The position numbers were made by a program, and so were the translations under genes. From Synechococcus sp. UW140 (lineage in GTDB: Bacteria > Pseudomonadota > Gammaproteobacteria > Burkholderiales > Burkholderiaceae_C), in the NCBI GenBank assembly GCA_943370905.1, contig CALRSS020000003.1, positions 172,183 through 236,182 of the forward strand: a stretch of DNA of 64,000 nt, written 5' to 3'. Positions 8,921-29,185 of this stretch are shown piece by piece (positions within the stretch are counted from its first letter, which is position 1; every line of letters starts with the position of its first letter). The notes under the pieces are model-generated. The model was not told the origin of the DNA. It made no database searches and saw only the letters and a list, made by a program, of their open reading frames with translations.

Positions 8921-9150
8921 TGCCTTTTTTCAAGCCCTCTGCTGATGCCGCTGGCGACCGCTTCGTGGCCCGCCTGCAGGCTCTGATCTGGATCCTGATC
9001 TACGGCGGCCTGCTCACGCTGGTGCTGGGGCTGTCGGTGCTGCGCCGGAGCGACACGCTGGGGTGGTCGCTGGTGGCCGGCGGCGGCGTGGTCGCGGCAG
9101 TGGGTTTTGGGCTAATTTATGTGCGCTCCAGAATCACGACGCGGGCCTGA
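8920..9150 (+). CDS. Small 2-TM membrane protein (76 aa)
   Basis: ATG overlaps the upstream stop (TGATG). MPFFKPS...LIWILIYGGLL...GFGLIYVRSRI has two hydrophobic helices. Confidence 0.7.
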   Translation: MPFFKPSADAAGDRFVARLQALIWILIYGGLLTLVLGLSVLRRSDTLGWSLVAGGGVVAAVGFGLIYVRSRITTRA

Positions 9151-19694: not shown

Positions 19695-20831
19695 TCAGCG
19701 TGATCCAGGCGGCTCCAGCTTGCGCCAATGGGGTGGCAGCAGGTCCGACACCGCCGTCGGCTCCCGGCGCAGCGAGCGCCGCACGGTGGTGCTGTCCAGC
19801 GCCATGCCGTCCCTGGAGAGGTTGACATAGGCAAGTTGCTGCATCCACTGGACATCCACCTGCCCGTCCGGGCCGGGACGGGAGAAAATCAGCTCCAGCA
19901 TCCTGCGCGCTTCGCCGCTGCCCTGGCTCTGGGCCAGCCGGTACAAACGGATTGCCTCCACAAAATTGGCGGGCTGCCCCTCGCCGCGGTGGTTGCGCTG
20001 CGCGCGCGCAAAGTTTTCCTTGGCCGTGGCCAGAAGGCGTGGATCGGAGACGTTGTGCAGCCGCTCTGTCAACAGCGCTGCGTTGGCTGCGGCGGCAGGA
20101 GATCGCGGCGCTGCGGCCCGGAACTGCTGGAGTGCGTCGTTGAGGCGGTTTTCGGCGACGCTCTCGAAGCCCAGTTCCAGCCGGGCGTGAATGTTGCCGC
20201 CCTGGGCGGCGCCCAGCAGCAGACGCCTGTCTCCGGTGGACGAGCGCGCGGGTTCTCCGCGCAGGTCAGGCGTTGCGGCATGCAGCGGTGCAAGCCGGGT
20301 CGTGACCAGCCATTGAAGGTAAAGCGACCGCGGCAGGTCCACTCCGCGAAGCTGCAGGATCCAGCGGCGCGCGGCAGCCGGGTTGGGTGTTCCCTGGCAG
20401 CCTTCGATCTCGCACCAGGCGAGACCTGCCGCCGCCATGGGTTCACCCAGCTTGCGGGCGCGTTCGAACCATCGGGCGGCTTCAGCGGGGTTGTACGCCA
20501 CACCAATGCCATGCAGGTAGAGCAGGCCCAGTGTCCATGAGGCCGTGGCCTGTTGGCGGGGCGTCTGCTCCTGCTCCGGTTCGCTCGCCAAGGCCTGTGC
20601 GCGCAAGCTTGACACCTCCAGATCCAGCCCGGACGGATCGCTGGCGGCATGAAGAGCGGGCGGCGCAGCTTCGGTGGCCCGCAGGGTCTGCGCGTCGGCG
20701 TCCTGCGCTTTGAGTGGCGGGGCGGACTCGATATCGCCTTCCAGGGGAGGGACGGCTTCAGCGCTGACAGCTGCCGCTGCAGACGCGGCCAGCAGCCACA
20801 GCCCGAGTGCGCAAGACATGCCGTGCCACAT
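19695..20831 (-). CDS. Secreted Sel1-like repeat protein
   Basis: Signal-like N-terminus. Sel1 motifs LGLLYLHGIGVAYNPAEAARWFERA and HRGEGQPANFVEAIRLYRLA. Starts 22 bp after the upstream gene. Confidence 0.8.
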   Translation of the reverse strand: MWHGMSCALGLWLLAASAAAAVSAEAVPPLEGDIESAPPLKAQDADAQTLRATEAAPPALHAASDPSGLDLEVSSLRAQALASEPEQEQTPRQQATASWTLGLLYLHGIGVAYNPAEAARWFERARKLGEPMAAAGLAWCEIEGCQGTPNPAAARRWILQLRGVDLPRSLYLQWLVTTRLAPLHAATPDLRGEPARSSTGDRRLLLGAAQGGNIHARLELGFESVAENRLNDALQQFRAAAPRSPAAAANAALLTERLHNVSDPRLLATAKENFARAQRNHRGEGQPANFVEAIRLYRLAQSQGSGEARRMLELIFSRPGPDGQVDVQWMQQLAYVNLSRDGMALDSTTVRRSLRREPTAVSDLLPPHWRKLEPPGSR

Positions 20832-20852
20832 GGCGGCTGCTCCGGGGCCGCG

Positions 20853-22583
20853 CTAGCGTGCGGCTGGTGGTGGTGGGGCGGCAGGCGGCGTGGCCGCCAC
20901 TGCCCGCTTCGGCCCGACCGCCCATTGCACACCTGCAAACGTATAGCCGCTGCTGCCCAGGGCCGTGGCAAAGGCCTTGTTCACCTCGTCCAGACTTGCC
21001 ACGTCACGCAGGCCGGTCAATGCCTGTGACTTGAGGAGTTGCGGCAGTTTTTCCGTTGCAGAGGCGTCCGTCGCGAAGCAGCCAACGCGATCGGTACCCA
21101 TGCTGCTGGCGTCCATGATGAAGCCGGGGCTCGGGCTCATCCAGTCGGGAATGCGGATCGCCTGGTTGGCGCTGATCAGTGCGTTGGGATTGGTCTTGTT
21201 CGGCAGCAGGCGCATGACTTTGCCGCTGGCCTCATGCAGGAAGCAATACAGGTAGGACGCGCGTGACACGGTCGCCGACAGGAAAATCTGCTCTCCGACC
21301 TCGAAGGAGGTTCGACCGACAAGCACGTTCTCGATCTGCAAATCGATTTTTCGGGGTGGTGCTGCAGCACCGTACGCTGCGGGGCCATAGGGATGTTCAG
21401 GTCTGCGCAAACCGGGCGTGGAACTGGCAACCGGCGACGCATTGCCGGCTGTCCAGCCGATCTGCTGAAGCTTTCCGTCCTGTCCCATCACGACAAAGTT
21501 ACGGAGTGCACGCTCATAGGTCGGGAAGTCGACCACGCCGGACACCACCATGCCCGAGTCGGCCTGGAACCTCCCGAGCGCCATGACGAACTCCGGATGA
21601 TTGGCATCGAGCTGTGCACCATTGGGCCCGAGATAGCCGTGGCTGATCAGTGAGTTCTGGACGAGCTTGTTGTGGAGCAAGGGTGAGCCCTGGTCATACC
21701 AGTCGCGCAGCTGGCGCTGGAAATCCGGGTGCGTCTGCTCCAGCGTCAGGCATTGCCAGTAGGGCACCCGGGCCCATTTCCCGACCAGCTCGATGGCTGC
21801 AAGATCGACCAGCGTGCGGATGGCGGCGCCGGCACCCTGCGCGTAGTCACGCCCCACGTTGAACTGCACACCGTATCGTCCTATGCGCCCGGCCAGGTCC
21901 AGGCCTTGCCCGCCGGTGGCAATGATCACCTCGTTGGCAGAGTCCAGCCCGGGAATGAGCGTGCGGGAGCGGAAATCGCCGATATGCAGTTCCAGCCCGA
22001 TGATGGTGGCGTTGCGCGTTCTGCTGTAACCCGTGTCCAGCCGGGAGGAGGCCGTGCCGACCTCAAAGCGGTTGTTGATGACGTTCTGGTCCACAAAGGC
22101 CACCGAGCCGGAGAAATAAAGCGCCGGTCGCTGAAGCTGTATCTGGTTGTTGTTGAGGAGAATCGTTGTCAGGTTCTGCACCGTGTCCTGCCGCGCAATA
22201 TCGACTTCGTAATCGACGTAACGGAAGGCGTTGCTCAGTCGTGACATCTGCGACAAAGCCGTGATGATCATGTCCTTGGTGGCGACCGGGGCACGTGTCG
22301 AAATGTCAGGAATCTGCTTGCTCGTGACCAGTGTGGTGGGCAACTCGGCCTCACGGAACAGGTAGTCCATGCACATCAGTGCGTCTGAGAAACTTGAAAC
22401 TGATCGCACAGGCCGCACCACGGGCCGGTCGGTAGCGCTGGCATAGGACTGGAACAGCGCATCGCCGCGCGGATCGGCTGGCGTGCCGCAGCCCGCCATC
22501 ATCAGGGAGCCGATGACGCACAAAATTGCGGCCTTCAAGCCAGGCCGTTGACGGACCTGGTCTGGCGAAATGAAGTGTTTCAT
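20853..22583 (-). CDS. CsgG/HfaB-like lipoprotein with peptidoglycan-binding and DUF4384 domains
   Basis: Lipobox-like MAGC. N-domain (SFSDALMCMD...FRYVD...GLELHIGD...AIRTLVDLAAIELVGK) is reminiscent of CsgG/HfaB. PG_binding_1-like ALGRFQADSGMVVSGVVD; DUF4384-like FEVGEQIFLS...YLYCF...RLLPN. Confidence 0.6.
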   Translation of the reverse strand: MKHFISPDQVRQRPGLKAAILCVIGSLMMAGCGTPADPRGDALFQSYASATDRPVVRPVRSVSSFSDALMCMDYLFREAELPTTLVTSKQIPDISTRAPVATKDMIITALSQMSRLSNAFRYVDYEVDIARQDTVQNLTTILLNNNQIQLQRPALYFSGSVAFVDQNVINNRFEVGTASSRLDTGYSRTRNATIIGLELHIGDFRSRTLIPGLDSANEVIIATGGQGLDLAGRIGRYGVQFNVGRDYAQGAGAAIRTLVDLAAIELVGKWARVPYWQCLTLEQTHPDFQRQLRDWYDQGSPLLHNKLVQNSLISHGYLGPNGAQLDANHPEFVMALGRFQADSGMVVSGVVDFPTYERALRNFVVMGQDGKLQQIGWTAGNASPVASSTPGLRRPEHPYGPAAYGAAAPPRKIDLQIENVLVGRTSFEVGEQIFLSATVSRASYLYCFLHEASGKVMRLLPNKTNPNALISANQAIRIPDWMSPSPGFIMDASSMGTDRVGCFATDASATEKLPQLLKSQALTGLRDVASLDEVNKAFATALGSSGYTFAGVQWAVGPKRAVAATPPAAPPPPAAR

Positions 22584-22701
22584 TTTCTCGTCCCTCCGCG
22601 ATGCATGGGAAAGTGAAGGTGGCCAACACATGGAACGCGCAGCGCATGTTGCCGCTGATGTCGCCTGTTCTGGCTGTATGGCATACGTCGGTCCGCCTGG
22701 C

Positions 22702-23130
22702 CTACTTGCAGATGTTCACCAGATCGCCCTTGAGCACCACAATCTGCTGGCTGTTGCCCGGCGTGTTCAGCCTTGAGCCGGCGAGCATGCTGGTCGTTGT
22801 GGTGCTGCCGACTTCCTGGATGCAGGTCTTCTTGAAGCCGTCGGAGGCAGCCTGGGTGGTGGCATCCGTATCGGTAGAGATACCTCGGGTCATGTCCGAA
22901 TTCGCCTTGGCCTCGTAGCGTGCGACCTTGGCCTTCATCCAGGCCGGCATGTCGGTAATCGATTCCATGGGCGAGCTGGTCCGGCTGCCGCCGGTCGGTG
23001 ACATCTGTACCGTGACGCGCTTGGTCAGGACCACAGGGTCTTCGCCGGGCGCATTTTGCGACCACACCGGCAGTGTGAGGCAGGTGCTGATGATGGCCAC
23101 CACGCCTGGAAGGTGCAGGGATGTTTTCAT
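22702..23130 (-). CDS. Small secreted hypothetical protein with Cys-bracketed C-terminal beta segment
   Basis: Signal peptide MKTSL...LPVWS; C-terminus CIQEVGS...SQQIVVLKGDLVNICK. Confidence 0.75.
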   Translation of the reverse strand: MKTSLHLPGVVAIISTCLTLPVWSQNAPGEDPVVLTKRVTVQMSPTGGSRTSSPMESITDMPAWMKAKVARYEAKANSDMTRGISTDTDATTQAASDGFKKTCIQEVGSTTTTSMLAGSRLNTPGNSQQIVVLKGDLVNICK

Positions 23131-23292
23131 GACGCAATCCTCCAACCTTGATGTTTGAAGAAGCCGCCGGATCAGGCCCCGCCTGACCCGGCGCGCGCTG
23201 GCATGCCACACGGGCCGCCAGAGAAAGTGCAATATCCGGAATCGCCGGTATTGGAGGGTGACTCGGACAACACTGAGGGGATCACCTGGCGC

Positions 23293-23769
23293 TCAGTTGT
23301 CGTGGCCGTGGCCGCGGCTGGAACCCGTGGTGACGCAGGCAAAGCAGGCATTGTTCGAGGCAATGTTCTGCACGGCGGTGGCGTCGCGGCCGGTGGCGCT
23401 GTTCAGGACATAGCTGCTGGCCAGTACCGTGGCCTGCATCGAATGGCCGCTGATGGTCACATCACCCACATTGGACGACAGGTTCTGCTGGGCCACAGTG
23501 TCTGCATTGGAGAGGTTGCCCACGTAGCTGCCGCGTGCAGCGACGATCTGCAGCGAGTGGCCGCGGATATCCACATCACCGGCATTGCTGGCCAGGTTTT
23601 GTTGCGCCAGTGAGTCCGTGCCGTTGGCGGTGTTGACCACGCCCGTGCTGGACAGGACGGCAATCTGTGTCGAGGTGCCTGTGATCCTGATTTCACTTGT
23701 CTCTGACGGCCCGGTTGCCATCGCTGCAGTGGCGATGGAGGACAGGGCGAGGAGTAGAAGCTTTTTCAT
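23293..23769 (-). CDS. Secreted three-repeat Q/N-ladder protein, candidate functional amyloid / beta-solenoid adhesin subunit
   Basis: Sec signal (MKKLLLLALSSIATAAMA), three imperfect 38-39 aa repeats, C-terminal CFAC, AAGGA RBS. The ORF is solid; the amyloid role is inferred. Confidence 0.75.
   Translation of the reverse strand: MKKLLLLALSSIATAAMATGPSETSEIRITGTSTQIAVLSSTGVVNTANGTDSLAQQNLASNAGDVDIRGHSLQIVAARGSYVGNLSNADTVAQQNLSSNVGDVTISGHSMQATVLASSYVLNSATGRDATAVQNIASNNACFACVTTGSSRGHGHDN
23344..23691 (-). repeat. Three tandem imperfect 38-39 codon repeats within the secreted subunit gene
   Basis: R1 aa27-65, R2 aa66-103, R3 aa104-142. Twelve invariant positions: I-x-G-x-S-x-Q...V-x-N...D-x-x-A-x-Q-N-x-x-S-N. 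Confidence 0.9.
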
Positions 23770-24373
23770 GACAGTTTCCTTCAGAAATTAAATGATGACT
23801 TCCTTGGTCTCCGTGAAATCCGGAGACCGGCCTGACGACATTGCACGGCGAAATGGTTTTTGGAGATCCCTCTTCTCCGGCGCTGTCGAGATGAAGTGTG
23901 GTGATTACTTTTATCTACTCCAATCGCCCATTGAAGTGACTCAAGTTGTGCACCTGGCGAAGGCCAACTGATTTGCCGGGGACATGCTGAACCCTGAAAC
24001 AGCTGTGTCGCTCGCTATCAATTTATGACTTTTGAAGCATCTCAATACTGGGTAGTTACAAGGTGTATCTGAGGCAACAGGCCTGAAAAAGTATCACTTT
24101 CCGGCCGGAGTTGTTTCTTAATTGACTACTTGCGTAGGCAAAACGACGGATTGGCGGGTAGCGGACGACAGCTTGAGCGGTGATGTAACAAAACGGGAAA
24201 ACATGGTGAGCGTGCGAAACCACCTGGCTGGCAGGGTTATCGGCCGCGGATGTCATTTATGCCGGTTGATTGATCTGGGTCATCAAAAGGCGAGGGCAGG
24301 GCGCCATACTCGCACCGGATTTTTGTGTACTTTTTGTGCAGGTGCCGACGCATAAAAAGAACGGGAGACAACC

Positions 24374-25156
24374 ATGAACTACGCCAATCAGTGCGTAAGC
24401 CAATCGCAGCCTGATTTTTTCGATGCGCAGGGCCTGTGGGTCAACGGGCAGACATCACACGGGGACCAGTTGCCGCTGTGGCCGGATTTCCTGACGGGGC
24501 AACCCGGCCAACCTGTTCGGGTTTTGCTGATTGATGACGATGCCCACATTCGAAAGGTGATTTCGCACGAACTGCTCGGAGACCTGCGTACCGACCTGGT
24601 GGGGGAGGCGAGCAGCATGCGGGAAGGCCGGCGTCTGATTTCGCAGCTCGAGTTTGATGTCATGCTGGTCGACCTGAACCTGGGCGACGGTACCGGCTTC
24701 GACCTGATCGACCACATGAAAACAGAACGTCCCATGGCGGAGGCGGTGGTCATTTCCGCACTCGAGGACGAAGAGCATGCCATGCATGCCTTCACGCTGG
24801 GTGCGACCGGCTATTACGTCAAGAACTCATGGTTTGGAAACTTTGCCGATGCTGTCCTGCAGGTGGCCAACGGTGGCGCCTCCATCACGCCGAGCCTTGC
24901 GCGCCGCCTCCTGAACAAGCTGCACCATCCACCGGAGTCCGGCCATTCATCCCACGGCGCGGGCAAGCGGCTGTCAGACCGGGAGAAAGAGGTGCTCAAA
25001 CTGGTGGCCGCAGGCTACACCAGCAACGAGATCGGAACGCGGCTGTTGCTGAGTTGCCAGACCGTTAATTCGCACATCAAGAACATCTATCGCAAACTGC
25101 ATGTGCGCAGCCGGGCCCAGGCTGTGAGCTATGCGGCACATCGGGGCCTTGTCTAG
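24374..25156 (+). CDS. NarL/LuxR-family response regulator
   Basis: REC (LLIDDD, LVDLNLGDGTG, GYYVK) plus HTH (LSDREKEVL...TVNSHIKNIYRKL); about 45 aa N-terminal extension. Confidence 0.93.
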   Translation: MNYANQCVSQSQPDFFDAQGLWVNGQTSHGDQLPLWPDFLTGQPGQPVRVLLIDDDAHIRKVISHELLGDLRTDLVGEASSMREGRRLISQLEFDVMLVDLNLGDGTGFDLIDHMKTERPMAEAVVISALEDEEHAMHAFTLGATGYYVKNSWFGNFADAVLQVANGGASITPSLARRLLNKLHHPPESGHSSHGAGKRLSDREKEVLKLVAAGYTSNEIGTRLLLSCQTVNSHIKNIYRKLHVRSRAQAVSYAAHRGLV

Positions 25157-25167
25157 CCGAGTCCACC

Positions 25168-26481
25168 ATGTCTGCCAACTGGACGTATGCGGATGAGGCC
25201 GCTGCACGCACCGCGCCTGGAGCAACCATGCCATGGTTTCCCGACTGGCTGGCCGAGAGGTCCAGACATGTACTGAACGCCAGGCTGCACGCGGCGTGGC
25301 AGCTGGCCCTGCTCATCTGGGTGAGCCATTTCCTGGCATCGGCTGCGCTGGTGGTGAATGGCGACGCTGACAAAAACCTCTACACCGCACACCTCGGGGT
25401 GCAGATTGTCATCATCAGCGAAGCTTTTTTCCTGCTTTCTGCCGGCAACTTCAAAAGCAGCAGGATCCTGTGGATTCTGGGTGCGCAGGGAGGTGCCACG
25501 GCCATGGCACTGGCCTGGCAGTCGTGGTCGGGCGCCCCCGGTACGCAGACCGCCTCAACGCTGGTGCTTGTCACCTTGCTGTCGGCCGTCGTGCTGACCC
25601 TTGCGCTGTGCGCTTGCGTGTATCTGCCCGGAAATTATTCAGGCTGGCTCGCGTTGGTCGGCAGCCTGCTGGGCATCGGCTTTTGCATCGAGCGAATCGT
25701 TCACGGCATGCCCCCGGGTGACATTTCCTTCCTGTCGCATCATGGCTATGCCTTGCTGGCATTGGTGGTGTGGCATGCCATGGTGGGCGCAGCCCGGCCC
25801 CGGGCGCCTCCACAGGCTGAAGGCCTCATGCCTTCCGCTGGCGCCACACAGGGCCGCTCGGGCGTGGCGCTGGCCGTCGCCCATGAGCGGCACCGGATTG
25901 CCCGGAACCTGCACGACGGGGTCGCATCGCATCTTGTCAGCATCATGTCGTCCCTGAACGAGCAGAACCCCCAGCAACAGGCACTGAGCCTGGCCCTCGA
26001 ACAGTGCCTGCTGGACATCAAGATGACTGTGGATGGCATGGAATGCGTGGACCAGAACCTGACCGACGCACTGGGCAGCTTGCGTTACCGGGTGCAGCGC
26101 CCCCTGGACAGGCTGGGCATCCGCATGATCTGGGACGTGGAGATGAGCATGGCGCTCGATCAGGTGCGTGGCCCTGACGTGGAGCACATTCTTCACATCG
26201 CCCAGGAATGCCTGTCGAATGTCATGCGTCACGCCAGCGCCTCGGAGGTGATCGTCGTCTGCCGTTACGCGGCCGATTCCGGACGCATCGAGCTGGAGGT
26301 GCGCGACAACGGCGTGGGCATCGCGTCGGGCGGTGCTGAAGGCACGTCAGGCAAGGGCCTTCACAACATCGACGAGCGGGCCCGATTGATCCACGGCAAT
26401 GTGGCCGTCTTCAGCAAGGAGGGCTCAGGAACCATCGTGTTCCTGACCTTCCCGCTCATGCTGCCGGTCGCCGGCGTGTAG
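25168..26481 (+). CDS. Multi-TM HisKA_3 sensor histidine kinase
   Basis: About 6 TM segments, ERHRIARNLHDG H-box, QECLSNVMRHA, VRDNGVG, GKGLHN. Confidence 0.9.
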   Translation: MSANWTYADEAAARTAPGATMPWFPDWLAERSRHVLNARLHAAWQLALLIWVSHFLASAALVVNGDADKNLYTAHLGVQIVIISEAFFLLSAGNFKSSRILWILGAQGGATAMALAWQSWSGAPGTQTASTLVLVTLLSAVVLTLALCACVYLPGNYSGWLALVGSLLGIGFCIERIVHGMPPGDISFLSHHGYALLALVVWHAMVGAARPRAPPQAEGLMPSAGATQGRSGVALAVAHERHRIARNLHDGVASHLVSIMSSLNEQNPQQQALSLALEQCLLDIKMTVDGMECVDQNLTDALGSLRYRVQRPLDRLGIRMIWDVEMSMALDQVRGPDVEHILHIAQECLSNVMRHASASEVIVVCRYAADSGRIELEVRDNGVGIASGGAEGTSGKGLHNIDERARLIHGNVAVFSKEGSGTIVFLTFPLMLPVAGV

Positions 26482-26713
26482 GCAGGCGGTCATCTCCATG
26501 GGGATGTCAGGTAGCCGGACATCCCCCGCGCGTGATCACCTAGCGTAGGTGCTGAGGCGTCTGAGTGCTGTCGCCAAGGCATGCGTCCGCCCGTGACGGT
26601 AGTGTGGTGTGCTGTGAGAGAATCCGGCGCGCACAAGGCAAGCCTGATCGACCGGGTTCTGGCCTGGTGCAGCGGTTTTCCCTCTCCAGCTTCACGATCA
26701 GTCCACTCCCTTC

Positions 26714-29185
26714 ATGCAAAAAATCATTCGCCAGATTGCCACCGAAATCAAGGTTCAGGAGCAGCAGATCCGTGTCGCCGTGGAGCTTCTGGACGGTGGT
26801 GCCACCGTGCCCTTCATTGCCCGGTACAGAAAGGAAGTCACCGGCGGACTGGACGACATCCAGCTGCGCGAGCTGGAATACCGTCTGGGCTACCTCCGGG
26901 AGCTGGAAGAGCGCCGCGAAGCCGTCATCAAGAGCATCGAGGAGCAGGGCAAGCTCACGCCCGAGCTGCGTGCCGCCATTGAACTGGCCGCCACCAAGCA
27001 GGACCTGGAAGATCTGTACCTGCCCTACAAGCCCAAGCGCCGCACCAAAGGGCAGATTGCCCGCGAGGCCGGCATTGAACCGCTGGCTGATGCGCTGTTT
27101 GCCAATCCTTCGCTGGTGCCAGCCGACGAGGCCGCCGCCTACGTGAAGGCCGAGAAAAACGAAAGCGGTGACGACTTCACCACGGTGCAGGCGGTGCTCG
27201 ACGGGGTGCGCGACATTTTGTCGGAGCGCTGGGCGGAAGACGCCGCCCTGGTGCAGTCGCTGCGCGGCTGGCTCTGGAACGAAGGCCTGTTTGCCTCCAA
27301 ACTGGTCACCGGCAAGGACGAGAACCTGCCAGACAACGCCAAGTTCCGCGACTATTTCGACTACGACGAACCCATCGGCCGCGTGCCTTCGCACCGTGCG
27401 CTGGCCGTGTTCCGCGGCCGCGCGCTGGAGATTCTGGATGCCAAGCTGGTGTTGCCGGAGCCACCCGAGGTGGGCACATCGGGAAAGACGGGCCCCACCG
27501 TGTCGCTCGCTGAGGGCAAGATTGCGCTGCACCTGGGCTGGAGCCACAAGGGCAGGGCAGCAGACGACCTGATCCGCAAATGCGTGGCCTGGACCTGGCG
27601 CGTCAAGCTCAGTCTGTCACTGGAGCGCGATCTCTTCACCCGCCTGCGGGAAGAGGCCGAGAAGGTGGCCATCAAGGTCTTTGCCGACAACCTGCGCGAC
27701 CTGCTGCTGGCCGCACCCGCCGGCCCGCGCGTCGTGATGGGGCTGGACCCAGGCATTCGCACCGGCGTGAAAGTGGCCGTGGTCGATGCGACCGGCAAGC
27801 TGGTCGAAACCGCCACCGTGTACCCGCACGAGCCGCGCAAGGACTGGGATGGCTCGCTGCACACGCTGGCCAGGCTGTGTGAAAAGCATGGCGTGAACCT
27901 GATCGCCATCGGCAATGGCACGGCCAGCCGCGAGACCGACAAGCTGGCGGCTGACCTGATCAAGTTGATGGCGAAAACTTCCGTTCGGGCTGAGCCTGTC
28001 GAAGCCGACCCTTCGACAGGCTCAGGGCGAACGGGAAGGGAAACTGCGGTGATCGAGAAGGTGGTGGTCAGCGAAGCGGGCGCCTCGGTGTATTCGGCCA
28101 GCGAGTTCGCCAGCCAGGAAATGCCAGACGTGGACGTGAGCCTGCGCGGCGCCGCCAGCATTGCGCGCCGGCTGCAGGACCCCTTGGCCGAGCTGGTGAA
28201 GATCGACCCGAAATCCATCGGCGTGGGCCAGTACCAGCACGATGTGAACCAGAGCGATCTGGCGCGCAGCCTCGATGCGGTGGTGGAAGACTGCGTGAAC
28301 AGCGTGGGCGTTGACCTGAATACTGCCAGCGTGCCGTTGCTGGCGCGCGTATCGGGCCTGTCGCAGACGGTGGCCAAATCGGTGGTGCGCTGGCGCGACG
28401 CCAACGGTGCCTTCGCGTCGCGGGCCGACCTGCTCAAGGTGACGGGCCTGGGCGCCAAGACCTTTGAGCAGAGTGCGGGCTTTTTGCGCCTGCGTACCCA
28501 GGTCGAAGGCAGCAACCCGCTGGACATGACGGGCGTGCACCCGGAGACCTACCCGGTGGTCGAGAAAATCATGCTGCATACCGGCAAGCCGGTGGCCGAG
28601 CTGATGGGTCGCTCCGAAATGCTCAAGACCCTGCGCCCCGAGCTGTTTGCCAACGAGCAGTTTGGCGTGATCACGGTGAAGGACATCCTGACTGAGCTGG
28701 AGAAACCCGGACGCGACCCGCGCCCTGATTTCAAGGTGGCCCGCTTCAACGACGACGTGGAAGACATCAGGGACTTGAAGGAAGGCATGACGCTGGAAGG
28801 CACTGTCAGCAACGTCGCGGCCTTCGGCGCCTTCATCGACATCGGCGTGCACCAGGATGGCCTGGTGCATGTGAGCCAACTGGCGCACAAGTTCGTCAAT
28901 GATGCACGCGAGGTGGTCAAGACTGGCGACATCGTCAAGGTGCGCGTGACTGAAGTGGACGTGGCCCGCAAGCGCATCGGACTGACCATGAAGCTGGGCG
29001 ACCCACCGGCGCGGCGGGACGGTGCGCAGGGTTTTCGCGAGAACCGCTTTGAGGGCGCAGCGCCGGGTCGGTCCGGCGGGGCAGGTCGCGCAGGCCCTTA
29101 CAGCGGGACTGCTCGTGCGCCGCAGGCTGCTGCCTCGACCGCGATGGAGTCGGCCTTCAGCAAGCTCGCCGCACTCAAAAAATAA
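26714..29185 (+). CDS. tex: Tex-family RNA-binding transcription accessory protein
   Basis: GATVPFIARYRKE, GLDPGIRTG, VSEAGASVYSAS, IGVGQYQHDV and a C-terminal S1 domain. Confidence 0.96.
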   Translation: MQKIIRQIATEIKVQEQQIRVAVELLDGGATVPFIARYRKEVTGGLDDIQLRELEYRLGYLRELEERREAVIKSIEEQGKLTPELRAAIELAATKQDLEDLYLPYKPKRRTKGQIAREAGIEPLADALFANPSLVPADEAAAYVKAEKNESGDDFTTVQAVLDGVRDILSERWAEDAALVQSLRGWLWNEGLFASKLVTGKDENLPDNAKFRDYFDYDEPIGRVPSHRALAVFRGRALEILDAKLVLPEPPEVGTSGKTGPTVSLAEGKIALHLGWSHKGRAADDLIRKCVAWTWRVKLSLSLERDLFTRLREEAEKVAIKVFADNLRDLLLAAPAGPRVVMGLDPGIRTGVKVAVVDATGKLVETATVYPHEPRKDWDGSLHTLARLCEKHGVNLIAIGNGTASRETDKLAADLIKLMAKTSVRAEPVEADPSTGSGRTGRETAVIEKVVVSEAGASVYSASEFASQEMPDVDVSLRGAASIARRLQDPLAELVKIDPKSIGVGQYQHDVNQSDLARSLDAVVEDCVNSVGVDLNTASVPLLARVSGLSQTVAKSVVRWRDANGAFASRADLLKVTGLGAKTFEQSAGFLRLRTQVEGSNPLDMTGVHPETYPVVEKIMLHTGKPVAELMGRSEMLKTLRPELFANEQFGVITVKDILTELEKPGRDPRPDFKVARFNDDVEDIRDLKEGMTLEGTVSNVAAFGAFIDIGVHQDGLVHVSQLAHKFVNDAREVVKTGDIVKVRVTEVDVARKRIGLTMKLGDPPARRDGAQGFRENRFEGAAPGRSGGAGRAGPYSGTARAPQAAASTAMESAFSKLAALKK
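27981..28034. repeat. 54-bp palindromic miniature element inserted in frame in tex
   Basis: CCGTTCG-GGC-TGAGCCTGTCGAAG-CCGACC-CTTCGACAGGCTCA-GGG-CGAACGG: perfect 14-bp and 7-bp stems; within the peptide SVRAEPVEADPSTGSGRTG. Confidence 0.88.

Follow-up and report, generated by a model that had tools for sequence, protein, structure and literature searches.

The gene under study lies in a 64,000-nucleotide stretch of contig CALRSS020000003.1 (assembly GCA_943370905.1, deposited as Synechococcus sp. UW140 and placed by GTDB in the Burkholderiaceae_C), which is referred to here as the window. It encodes a small secreted repeat protein, a putative fibre subunit, and is the first of four minus-strand genes that we describe together as a cassette. 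The original prediction had placed a secreted protein of 158 amino acids (aa) at positions 23293-23769; these coordinates proved to be exact, and the strand, which had not been given, is the minus strand. The gene has an ATG start with the Shine-Dalgarno sequence GAAGGAA located 6 nt upstream, and its product begins with MKKLLLLALSSIATAAMA/TGP, which has the typical form of a Sec signal, including an AxA site, and is conserved across the family of homologues.

The repeat protein and its gene

The features of the gene and its product are as follows.

23293..23769, minus strand: repeat-protein gene, putative fibre subunit, 158 aa, assigned from the open reading frame (ORF) and its translation, the Shine-Dalgarno sequence, homologues, the ratio of non-synonymous to synonymous substitution rates (dN/dS) and an AlphaFold2 model
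23716-23769, minus strand: signal peptide, aa 1-18
aa 19-26: short disordered segment preceding repeat 1
23575..23691, minus strand: repeat 1, aa 27-65 (39 aa); predicted strands 26-29, 32-40, 43-48 and 53-59; invariant residues Q35, N46, Q57, N58, S61, N62 and G64
23461..23574, minus strand: repeat 2, aa 66-103 (38 aa); predicted strands 65-68, 71-79, 82-87 and 91-97; invariant residues Q74, N85, Q95, N96, S99, N100 and G102
23344..23460, minus strand: repeat 3, aa 104-142 (39 aa); predicted strands 104-106, 109-117, 120-125 and 131-136; invariant residues Q112, N123, Q134 and N139, with C142 as its last residue
23335..23346, minus strand: C142-F-A-C145 motif, both Cys invariant in an alignment of 39 family members
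23293-23334, minus strand: His/Gly-rich C-terminal tail, aa 146-158

The three repeats of 38-39 aa that had been read from the sequence are directly contiguous, without linkers, and share 41-46% pairwise identity. Their summed local alignment score was 223; 2000 shuffled versions of the mature sequence averaged 62.5 ± 8.0 and reached 94 at most. Because this corresponds to z = 20, the repeats are real, far beyond chance. The three repeats agree at exactly 12 positions, the number originally counted, and the composition was also as described: the protein's sole Pro, P21, is not in a repeat, charged residues occupy 10 of the 116 repeat positions and include no K or E, and the only Cys residues are C142 and C145. 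In repeats 1 and 2 the coil that follows opens with G-D-V, and the motif formed by these two Cys takes the place of that G-D-V. Comparison with orthologues sharing about 60-80% identity gave a dN/dS of 0.19-0.25, indicative of purifying selection, and we therefore regard the repeat gene as a functional coding gene. Many long ORFs overlap these genes within 19700-26500, either in another frame or on the other strand (for example 19728-20540 plus, 22580-23209 minus and 23155-23613 plus); they were taken to be by-products of the base composition of the region and not genes.

His/Gly-rich tails behind the CxxC motif, such as GHGHDN, GHGHGH and GGGHGGGHGGH, were observed in the Polaromonas clade (P0002-P0014 too) and could be metal-binding. 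The other clades lack this tail and end 1-2 residues past the motif.

A modular family in the Comamonadaceae

For the repeat protein, neither the Pfam and NCBIfam models nor the PDB sequences gave a match; in combined sequence and profile searches of the PDB the best result, a fungal lectin-like protein, had a non-significant E value of 0.056. A word-indexed search retrieved 84 homologues from Polaromonas, Xenophilus and Diaphorobacter, and each of those with a source name is annotated as 'hypothetical protein'. A profile was also searched exhaustively against 1.84 billion cluster representatives and yielded only 181 sequences at E ≤ 0.001, mostly from Comamonadaceae. When one genome per species was scanned, 111 loci were obtained, 80 of which were kept for counting the genomic context. 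Almost all of these 80 belong to Comamonadaceae, and the carrier genera include Polaromonas, Acidovorax, Hydrogenophaga, Delftia, Simplicispira, Comamonas and Ottowia as well as Variovorax, Xenophilus, Caenimonas, Tibeticola, Xylophilus and Giesbergeria. The closest relative of the window locus is found in an uncultured Polaromonas metagenome-assembled genome (MAG), and the window gene itself was found in a lake-water metagenome. Our literature search found no paper describing the repeat family or any amyloid system in the carrier genera.

Every repeat of 39 diverse members conforms to the pattern Q-x10-N-x10-Q-N-x-x-S-N-x-G, so that the Gln, Asn, Ser and Gly positions proposed to form ladders are indeed invariant in the homologues. 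The final repeat ends with N-x-x-C-x-x-C in the same alignment. The proposal that the CxxC motif is a trait reminiscent of FapC, the fibre subunit of the Fap system, was only partly borne out: both Cys are invariant among the 39 aligned sequences, but the motif is not family-wide, being present in 133 of the 203 family members of at least 95 aa in which motifs were counted. Repeat number in this set is modular, ranging from about 2 to about 11 with a mode of three motifs (121/203), and the proteins range from two-repeat forms of ~100 aa, in which Cys is absent, up to one of 509 aa with ~11 repeats. The Cys-free two-repeat proteins constitute a distant subfamily, 33-40% identical, from soil and sludge metagenomes.

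Paralogous copies were seen at some loci. In five Polaromonas MAG loci the cassette is headed by two tandem repeat-gene paralogues (L025, 7445-8456; L027, 7214-8390; L028, 2838-3855; L031, 252-1392; L033, 7316-8390), and by one repeat gene in the other loci. The distant two-repeat loci carry an extra small secreted protein upstream, with degenerate repeats in which VNIGSVS replaces QN..SN (L087, 1604-1915; L085, 3084-3476; L084, 2809-3219) and which match the family hidden Markov model weakly, with E values of 1e-6 to 1e-4. By analogy, the tandem and degenerate paralogues recall pairs of major and minor subunits, and the degenerate upstream paralogue may be the analogue of a minor subunit or nucleator. 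One further locus, L047 (contig CALRSR020000035.1), is labelled as a MAG of the alphaproteobacterium Bosea thiooxidans, and its cassette is 44-64% identical to those of Comamonadaceae; this is probably a mis-binned contig.

A predicted beta-solenoid without capping domains

We modelled the repeat protein with AlphaFold2, using the 39-sequence alignment as input. The resulting model was all-beta and contained no helix, with a mean predicted local distance difference test score (pLDDT) of 74.8, values of 80-91 for residues 31-140 and a predicted template-modelling score of 0.63; residues 1-23 and 146-158 were disordered. Assignment of secondary structure with DSSP gave each repeat four strands, which recur at matching positions every 38-39 residues, and the predicted fold is therefore a solenoid with one coil per repeat. 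This outcome agrees with the beta-solenoid that had been expected and is neither globular nor helical. In such a model, the invariant Gln, Asn, Ser and Gly residues would align in register as ladders along the solenoid axis.

When the model was searched against the PDB with Foldseek, the FapC fibril (9u4u) ranked first and was the sole match below E 0.001 (E 3.9e-4, probability 0.63). The matches that followed were non-significant (E > 0.1) and included bactofilin, the CsgA fibril and ice-binding beta-helices. The model thus suggests that the fold class is that of a solenoid, with functional amyloids as its nearest solved relatives by local structure, none of which really superposes. Two of the listed proteins were considered as candidates and rejected. 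Ice-binding beta-helices of the DUF3494 type, which are flanked by an alpha-helix, scored E 0.4-3 with a template-modelling (TM) score of ~0.1, our model has no helix, there was no Pfam match, and the family is common in mesophiles. Bactofilin, a cytoplasmic DUF583 polymer, scored E 0.13, again without a Pfam match, and the repeat protein has a conserved Sec signal.

Since capped ends would speak against self-stacking, the ends of the solenoid were inspected. Across the family, repeat 1 begins only ~8 residues (range 3-17) after the site of signal-peptide cleavage, and only ~9 residues (range 1-16) follow the CxxC motif. The terminal repeats are no more highly charged than the middle one, and prolines are almost absent from the repeats. 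Given these short non-repeat ends and the lack of additional charge or Pro in the terminal repeats, we conclude that there is no capping domain. The CxxC motif, sited where the next coil would begin, could nevertheless act as a minimal cap.

This last point bears on a different view of the protein, namely that it is a monomeric, non-polymerising beta-solenoid at the surface or in the periplasm, for instance a spacer, an adhesin or a protein that binds a ligand or ice. In that case its function would reside in the flat faces of the solenoid, the CxxC disulfide together with the short disordered tails would serve as minimal caps, and the other cassette proteins would merely export or anchor the solenoid. 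Foldseek did list monomeric beta-helices (ice-binding proteins, pentapeptide-like SV2 domains and pectate lyase, E 0.3-3), the window and many relatives derive from cold freshwater or glacier Polaromonas, most family members have exactly three repeats, and the invariant CxxC lies at the very point where another coil would begin and could thus be a cap. On the other hand, the terminal coils have no edge protection by charge or proline in addition to lacking a capping domain, the two-repeat subfamily is wholly devoid of Cys, and repeat number varies freely up to about 11. Moreover, members occur just as much in mesophilic sludge and soil genera (Delftia, Acidovorax, Comamonas and Ottowia), and no Pfam ice-binding or adhesin family was matched. 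On balance, we regard a monomeric solenoid as somewhat unlikely.

The cassette and the divergent regulator genes

Three genes follow the repeat gene on the minus strand, and a two-component system is encoded divergently. This context, which the original prediction did not take in, provides our strongest evidence. We refer to the second and third cassette genes as p176 and p592.

22702..23130, minus strand: p176, second cassette gene, 142-aa secreted protein; present in 79/80 loci and in the distant loci
20853..22583, minus strand: p592, third cassette gene, 576-aa lipoprotein with lipobox MAG/C; 77/80 loci, 49-94% identity
19695..20831, minus strand: fourth cassette gene, 378-aa Sel1-repeat protein with signal peptide (Pfam Sel1, E 2.4e-10); 73/80 loci
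23770..24373, no strand: divergent intergenic region of 604 bp between the cassette and the regulator genes
24374..25156, plus strand: NarL/FixJ response regulator with LuxR-type helix-turn-helix, 260 aa (Pfam Response_reg and GerE)
25168..26481, plus strand: membrane sensor histidine kinase, 437 aa (HisKA_3 and HATPase_c); 61/80 loci

As judged by tblastn, the genes downstream of the repeat gene are present, in the same order, in nearly all of the 80 loci (p176 in 79, p592 in 77 and Sel1 in 73), and those absences that we inspected (for example L009, L020 and L074) fall at short contigs or contig ends. The same three genes also follow in the distant two-repeat subfamily: a p176-like gene with the same C-terminal motif, a p592-like lipoprotein with the same domains (41% identity, E 1e-128 to 1e-137) and a Sel1 gene. 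The fact that the cassette is kept in this distant subfamily shows that it is old and functionally coupled.

The p176 gene had been listed as a 176-aa ORF with a TTG start, and its real start is the ATG at 23130, preceded by the Shine-Dalgarno sequence GGAGGA. Its product has a signal peptide, followed by the conserved motifs APGEDP and MPAW.(K/R)A(K/R).ARYEAKA and by a C-terminus of the form C.QEVGS...QQ.VVL(K/R)GDLVN.C(K/R), in which both Cys are conserved; it matched nothing in Pfam or NCBIfam. To the eye, its C-terminal segment (22702-22830), C.QEVGS...QQIVVLKGDLVNIC, resembles the repeat unit xQxx[LV][AG]S ... SxQ[IV]V...V.N.

The lipoprotein p592, with an ATG start at 22583, is the most conserved protein of the cassette. 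It consists of an N-terminal domain of ~270 aa followed by PG_binding_1 (about aa 307-357) and DUF4384 (aa 427-506). The N-terminal ~270 aa are extremely conserved, and many invariant columns were seen in 97 homologues over residues about 33-300, for example QDTVQNLTTILLNNNQ.QLQRP and GKWARVPYWQCLTL. This part found no counterpart in Pfam, NCBIfam or the PDB, and by itself it qualifies as a conserved domain that lacks annotation. Foldseek searches with the p592 model returned generic Ig-like sandwiches, for the DUF4384 part only. In the literature, we found no paper linking DUF4384 to amyloid or CsgG.

The intergenic region of 604 bp presumably holds the promoters of both directions, and scans of this region for promoters, terminators and repeats revealed nothing above background. 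The response regulator occupies the same divergent position in 73 of the 80 loci, and the adjacent histidine kinase is its partner. Compared with the CsgD model the regulator scored 52 bits, far below the cutoff of 250, and NarL and MadR were better matches.

Two observations concern the surroundings of the cassette. An 823-aa ORF (26714-29185, plus strand), which by eye we take to be of the Tex type, adjoins the kinase gene and is syntenic with the cassette in 33/80 loci, probably reflecting a shared chromosomal neighbourhood and not function. At position 9054 of the Delftia acidovorans NBRC 14950 locus (L042), in the spacer between p176 and the lipoprotein gene, one reference base was missing from 4/4 runs, owing either to a difference between strains or to an error in the assembly.

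The composition of the cassette raises the question of where the solenoid resides. Conceivably, it forms a periplasmic, peptidoglycan-associated structure, polymeric or not, that is held inside the outer membrane by the peptidoglycan-binding DUF4384 lipoprotein and the Sel1 protein, with a function in envelope architecture or stress protection and no role in an extracellular matrix. The combination of PG_binding_1 and a lipobox in p592, the signal peptide of the Sel1 protein, the lack of any recognisable outer-membrane beta-barrel or secretin in the cassette, and the resemblance of the regulators to envelope-sensing systems of the NarL/LiaS type would all be in line with this idea. Set against it, the ~270-aa domain of p592, the most conserved part of the cassette, could be an export device, and we know of no precedent for a periplasmic polymer made of Q/N-ladder solenoids. 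A strictly periplasmic structure therefore seems clearly unlikely to us.

Comparison with Fap, curli and other systems

The similarity to FapC that had been proposed on the basis of repeat count, length and CxxC was followed up with a FapC sequence that had been verified, for its repeats and its C-terminal ...GSGCTVCA..., against PDB entries 9nqd and 9u4u. The FapC fibril has been solved and consists of three imperfect repeats, each forming one cross-beta layer with conserved Asn/Gln networks (PMC12392863). The FapC repeats are separated by long variable linkers, and repeat number varies in some Fap lineages (PMC3792158). The present protein shares with FapC a Sec-secreted subunit, three imperfect repeats of similar length, a C-terminal CxxC (CTVC in FapC and CFAC here), a variable repeat number and, at the level of prediction, one layer per repeat; FapC is furthermore its best Foldseek match. 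In contrast to FapC, its repeats are contiguous, and each coil has four predicted strands instead of a five-strand Greek key. Also, sequence homology was undetectable. The structural match to FapC, though the top one in the PDB, is weak, and global superposition was poor (TM 0.17). The cassette contains neither the FapF barrel nor the FapD peptidase, FapA or FapE; its matches are to Sel1, PG_binding_1 and DUF4384 only.

The curlin repeat of ~23 aa contains two strand motifs of the form N-$-Psi-$-Psi-$-Q joined by x-G-x-x arcs, and CsgA families vary in repeat number (PMC10192328). Likenesses to curli include a solenoid built from repeats, which is predicted in our case, with in-register Gln/Asn ladders and no linkers, a modular repeat number, polar outward faces, a divergent gene for a LuxR-family regulator and a lipoprotein among the accessory genes. 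The curlin repeat has two strands, however, whereas the unit found here is a 39-aa coil of four strands with the pattern Q-x10-N-x10-QN-xx-SN-x-G, and the cassette has no equivalents of CsgE, CsgF or CsgC. The resemblance of the divergent regulator to CsgD is one of position, by analogy, and not one of orthology.

These comparisons leave little room for the view that the repeat protein does belong to the Fap (FapC/FapB) or curli (CsgA/CsgB) families and has diverged strongly from their other members. It could be argued in its favour that the three-repeat count, the similar repeat length and the terminal CxxC are common to FapC, that FapC is the top structural match, and that a divergent LuxR-type regulator is also found at the csg locus. 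Profile comparisons with hhalign, however, gave no homology, consistent with the earlier statement that the pattern is unlike those of FapC and CsgA. The family profile aligned to FapC with E 0.31, no better than the reversed control (0.07), the repeat-unit profile aligned to the Fap repeats (NNAxLxNSANNxSGNxGVNxAAGxGNQQxN) with E 0.37, and the alignment with Escherichia coli CsgA (E 0.26) involved the signal peptide alone. Neither the repeat protein nor the rest of the cassette had any Fap or curlin match at E ≤ 0.1 in Pfam or NCBIfam, the Curlin_rpt model of Pfam included. Together with the absence of linkers, the different coil and the lack of any recognisable FapA/D/E/F or CsgE/F/G in the cassette, this effectively refutes membership at the sequence level, and we consider it highly improbable.

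The Caulobacter holdfast anchor HfaA/HfaB/HfaD provides another point of reference. Its small secreted protein assembles into very stable multimers and is encoded in an envelope-associated operon alongside a lipoprotein needed for export or anchoring, HfaB being CsgG-like. The joint encoding of a small secreted protein and a lipoprotein in an envelope-associated operon is what it has in common with the cassette. It differs in that no NCBIfam or Pfam Hfa model was matched, that p592 is not demonstrably CsgG-like and that the carriers of the cassette are not stalked, holdfast-forming bacteria.

Discussion

We propose, with a probability of roughly 0.5, that the repeat protein is an amyloid-like fibre subunit belonging to an undescribed family of Sec-exported beta-solenoids with an assembly cassette of its own. 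Support is good for both the fold and the cassette; polymerisation and amyloid character are only inferred.

After removal of the signal peptide, the mature protein of ~140 aa would consist almost entirely of three 39-residue coils. Each coil is predicted to comprise four short strands, and the coils would stack in register such that the invariant Gln, Asn, Ser and Gly residues form ladders. Subunits might then add head-to-tail, with repeat 1 placed onto repeat 3 of a neighbouring subunit, and this stacking would give rise to a cross-beta fibre of amyloid-like type that lies outside the cytoplasm, either at the outer membrane or past it, as is the case for CsgA and FapC. The C-terminal CxxC may close or staple the last coil or cross-link subunits. 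The p176, p592 and Sel1 proteins would serve the subunit as chaperones, exporters, nucleators or anchors at the layer of peptidoglycan and outer membrane. Of these three, p176 has a disulfide-bracketed C-terminus that resembles one repeat unit (a resemblance that is not significant), p592 is a peptidoglycan-binding DUF4384 lipoprotein, and the Sel1 protein would be a periplasmic protein resembling tetratricopeptide-repeat proteins. Judging from the gene arrangement, the four cassette genes may form one transcript, which the divergent LuxR-type two-component system would switch on from a position like that of CsgD at the curli locus.

Several results weigh against this proposal. The AlphaFold2 alignment of 39 sequences was shallow, and three of the five models had a mean pLDDT of only 59-65, while the FapC match is weak and involves no global superposition (rmsd 15 Å). 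For p592, residues 31-305 were modelled with pLDDT < 50, and its peptidoglycan-binding domain equally fits a periplasmic role. The notion that the C-terminus of p176 is a single repeat unit, which could make it a nucleator, is no more than a hint: the register is as seen by eye, but hhalign gave E 0.006-0.06 with a probability of < 10%. Similarly, the N-terminal domain of p592 had by eye suggested a CsgG-like channel, which we rejected as unsupported. The hhalign probability against CsgG was 34-46% (single CsgG and family profile), with E 2e-4 for the family profile, and without the lipobox a single 21-residue helix was aligned (E 0.005), which shows that the signal is mostly the shared lipoprotein signal. 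With a more diverse profile the E value was 0.02, judged no better than the 0.1 of the reversed control, and the CsgG Pfam model PF03783 did not match any of 21 p592 members and three distant members. More generally, no recognisable outer-membrane beta-barrel, secretin or channel was found in the cassette with Pfam, NCBIfam or Foldseek. Lastly, none of the RNA runs checked for the window repeat gene contains it. Runs marked 'RNA?' with the orthologous Delftia locus yielded contigs of 14-33 kb with flat depth, and these look like genomic DNA.

Should the fibre reading be correct, then the fact that no part of the system is homologous to curli or Fap components would make it an independent, third kind of dedicated fibre system in Gram-negative bacteria. 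We advance tentatively, and at rather less than even odds, the fuller version of this idea: a third, evolutionarily independent functional-amyloid system with a new 39-residue four-strand coil bearing Q/N/S ladders and entirely new assembly machinery. That machinery would comprise the peptidoglycan-binding DUF4384 lipoprotein with its conserved ~270-aa N-terminal domain, the Sel1 protein and p176, the last as a nucleator, cap or chaperone, and the system would be widespread in freshwater, soil and activated-sludge Comamonadaceae.

To our knowledge, curli and Fap are the only dedicated amyloid-fibre systems of Gram-negative bacteria that are understood at the level of both genes and structure. 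They are models for controlled amyloid assembly, for the biology of the biofilm matrix and for engineered living materials. If our proposal is true, a non-homologous family with the same design logic, namely secreted stacked imperfect repeats, Asn/Gln ladders and a modular repeat number, would provide an independent test of the features needed for safe, directed amyloid assembly, since both its coil and its complete accessory set differ from those of curli and Fap. Novelty would lie, as far as sequence comparison can tell, in a solenoid system that is non-homologous to curli and Fap in subunit and machinery; its functional-amyloid-like kind is already known. If the protein is instead a monomeric solenoid, the cassette would still be a new and tightly conserved envelope cassette, albeit of narrower interest.

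Flocs of activated sludge, biofilms in drinking water, rhizospheres and glacier-fed waters harbour the carriers Acidovorax, Delftia, Comamonas, Ottowia, Hydrogenophaga and Polaromonas in abundance. Amyloid staining is common in these habitats, and the responsible genes are mostly unknown. The proposed fibre system, if real, would moreover assign a role to a conserved DUF4384 lipoprotein, to its unannotated domain of 270 residues and to a secreted protein of 140 residues.

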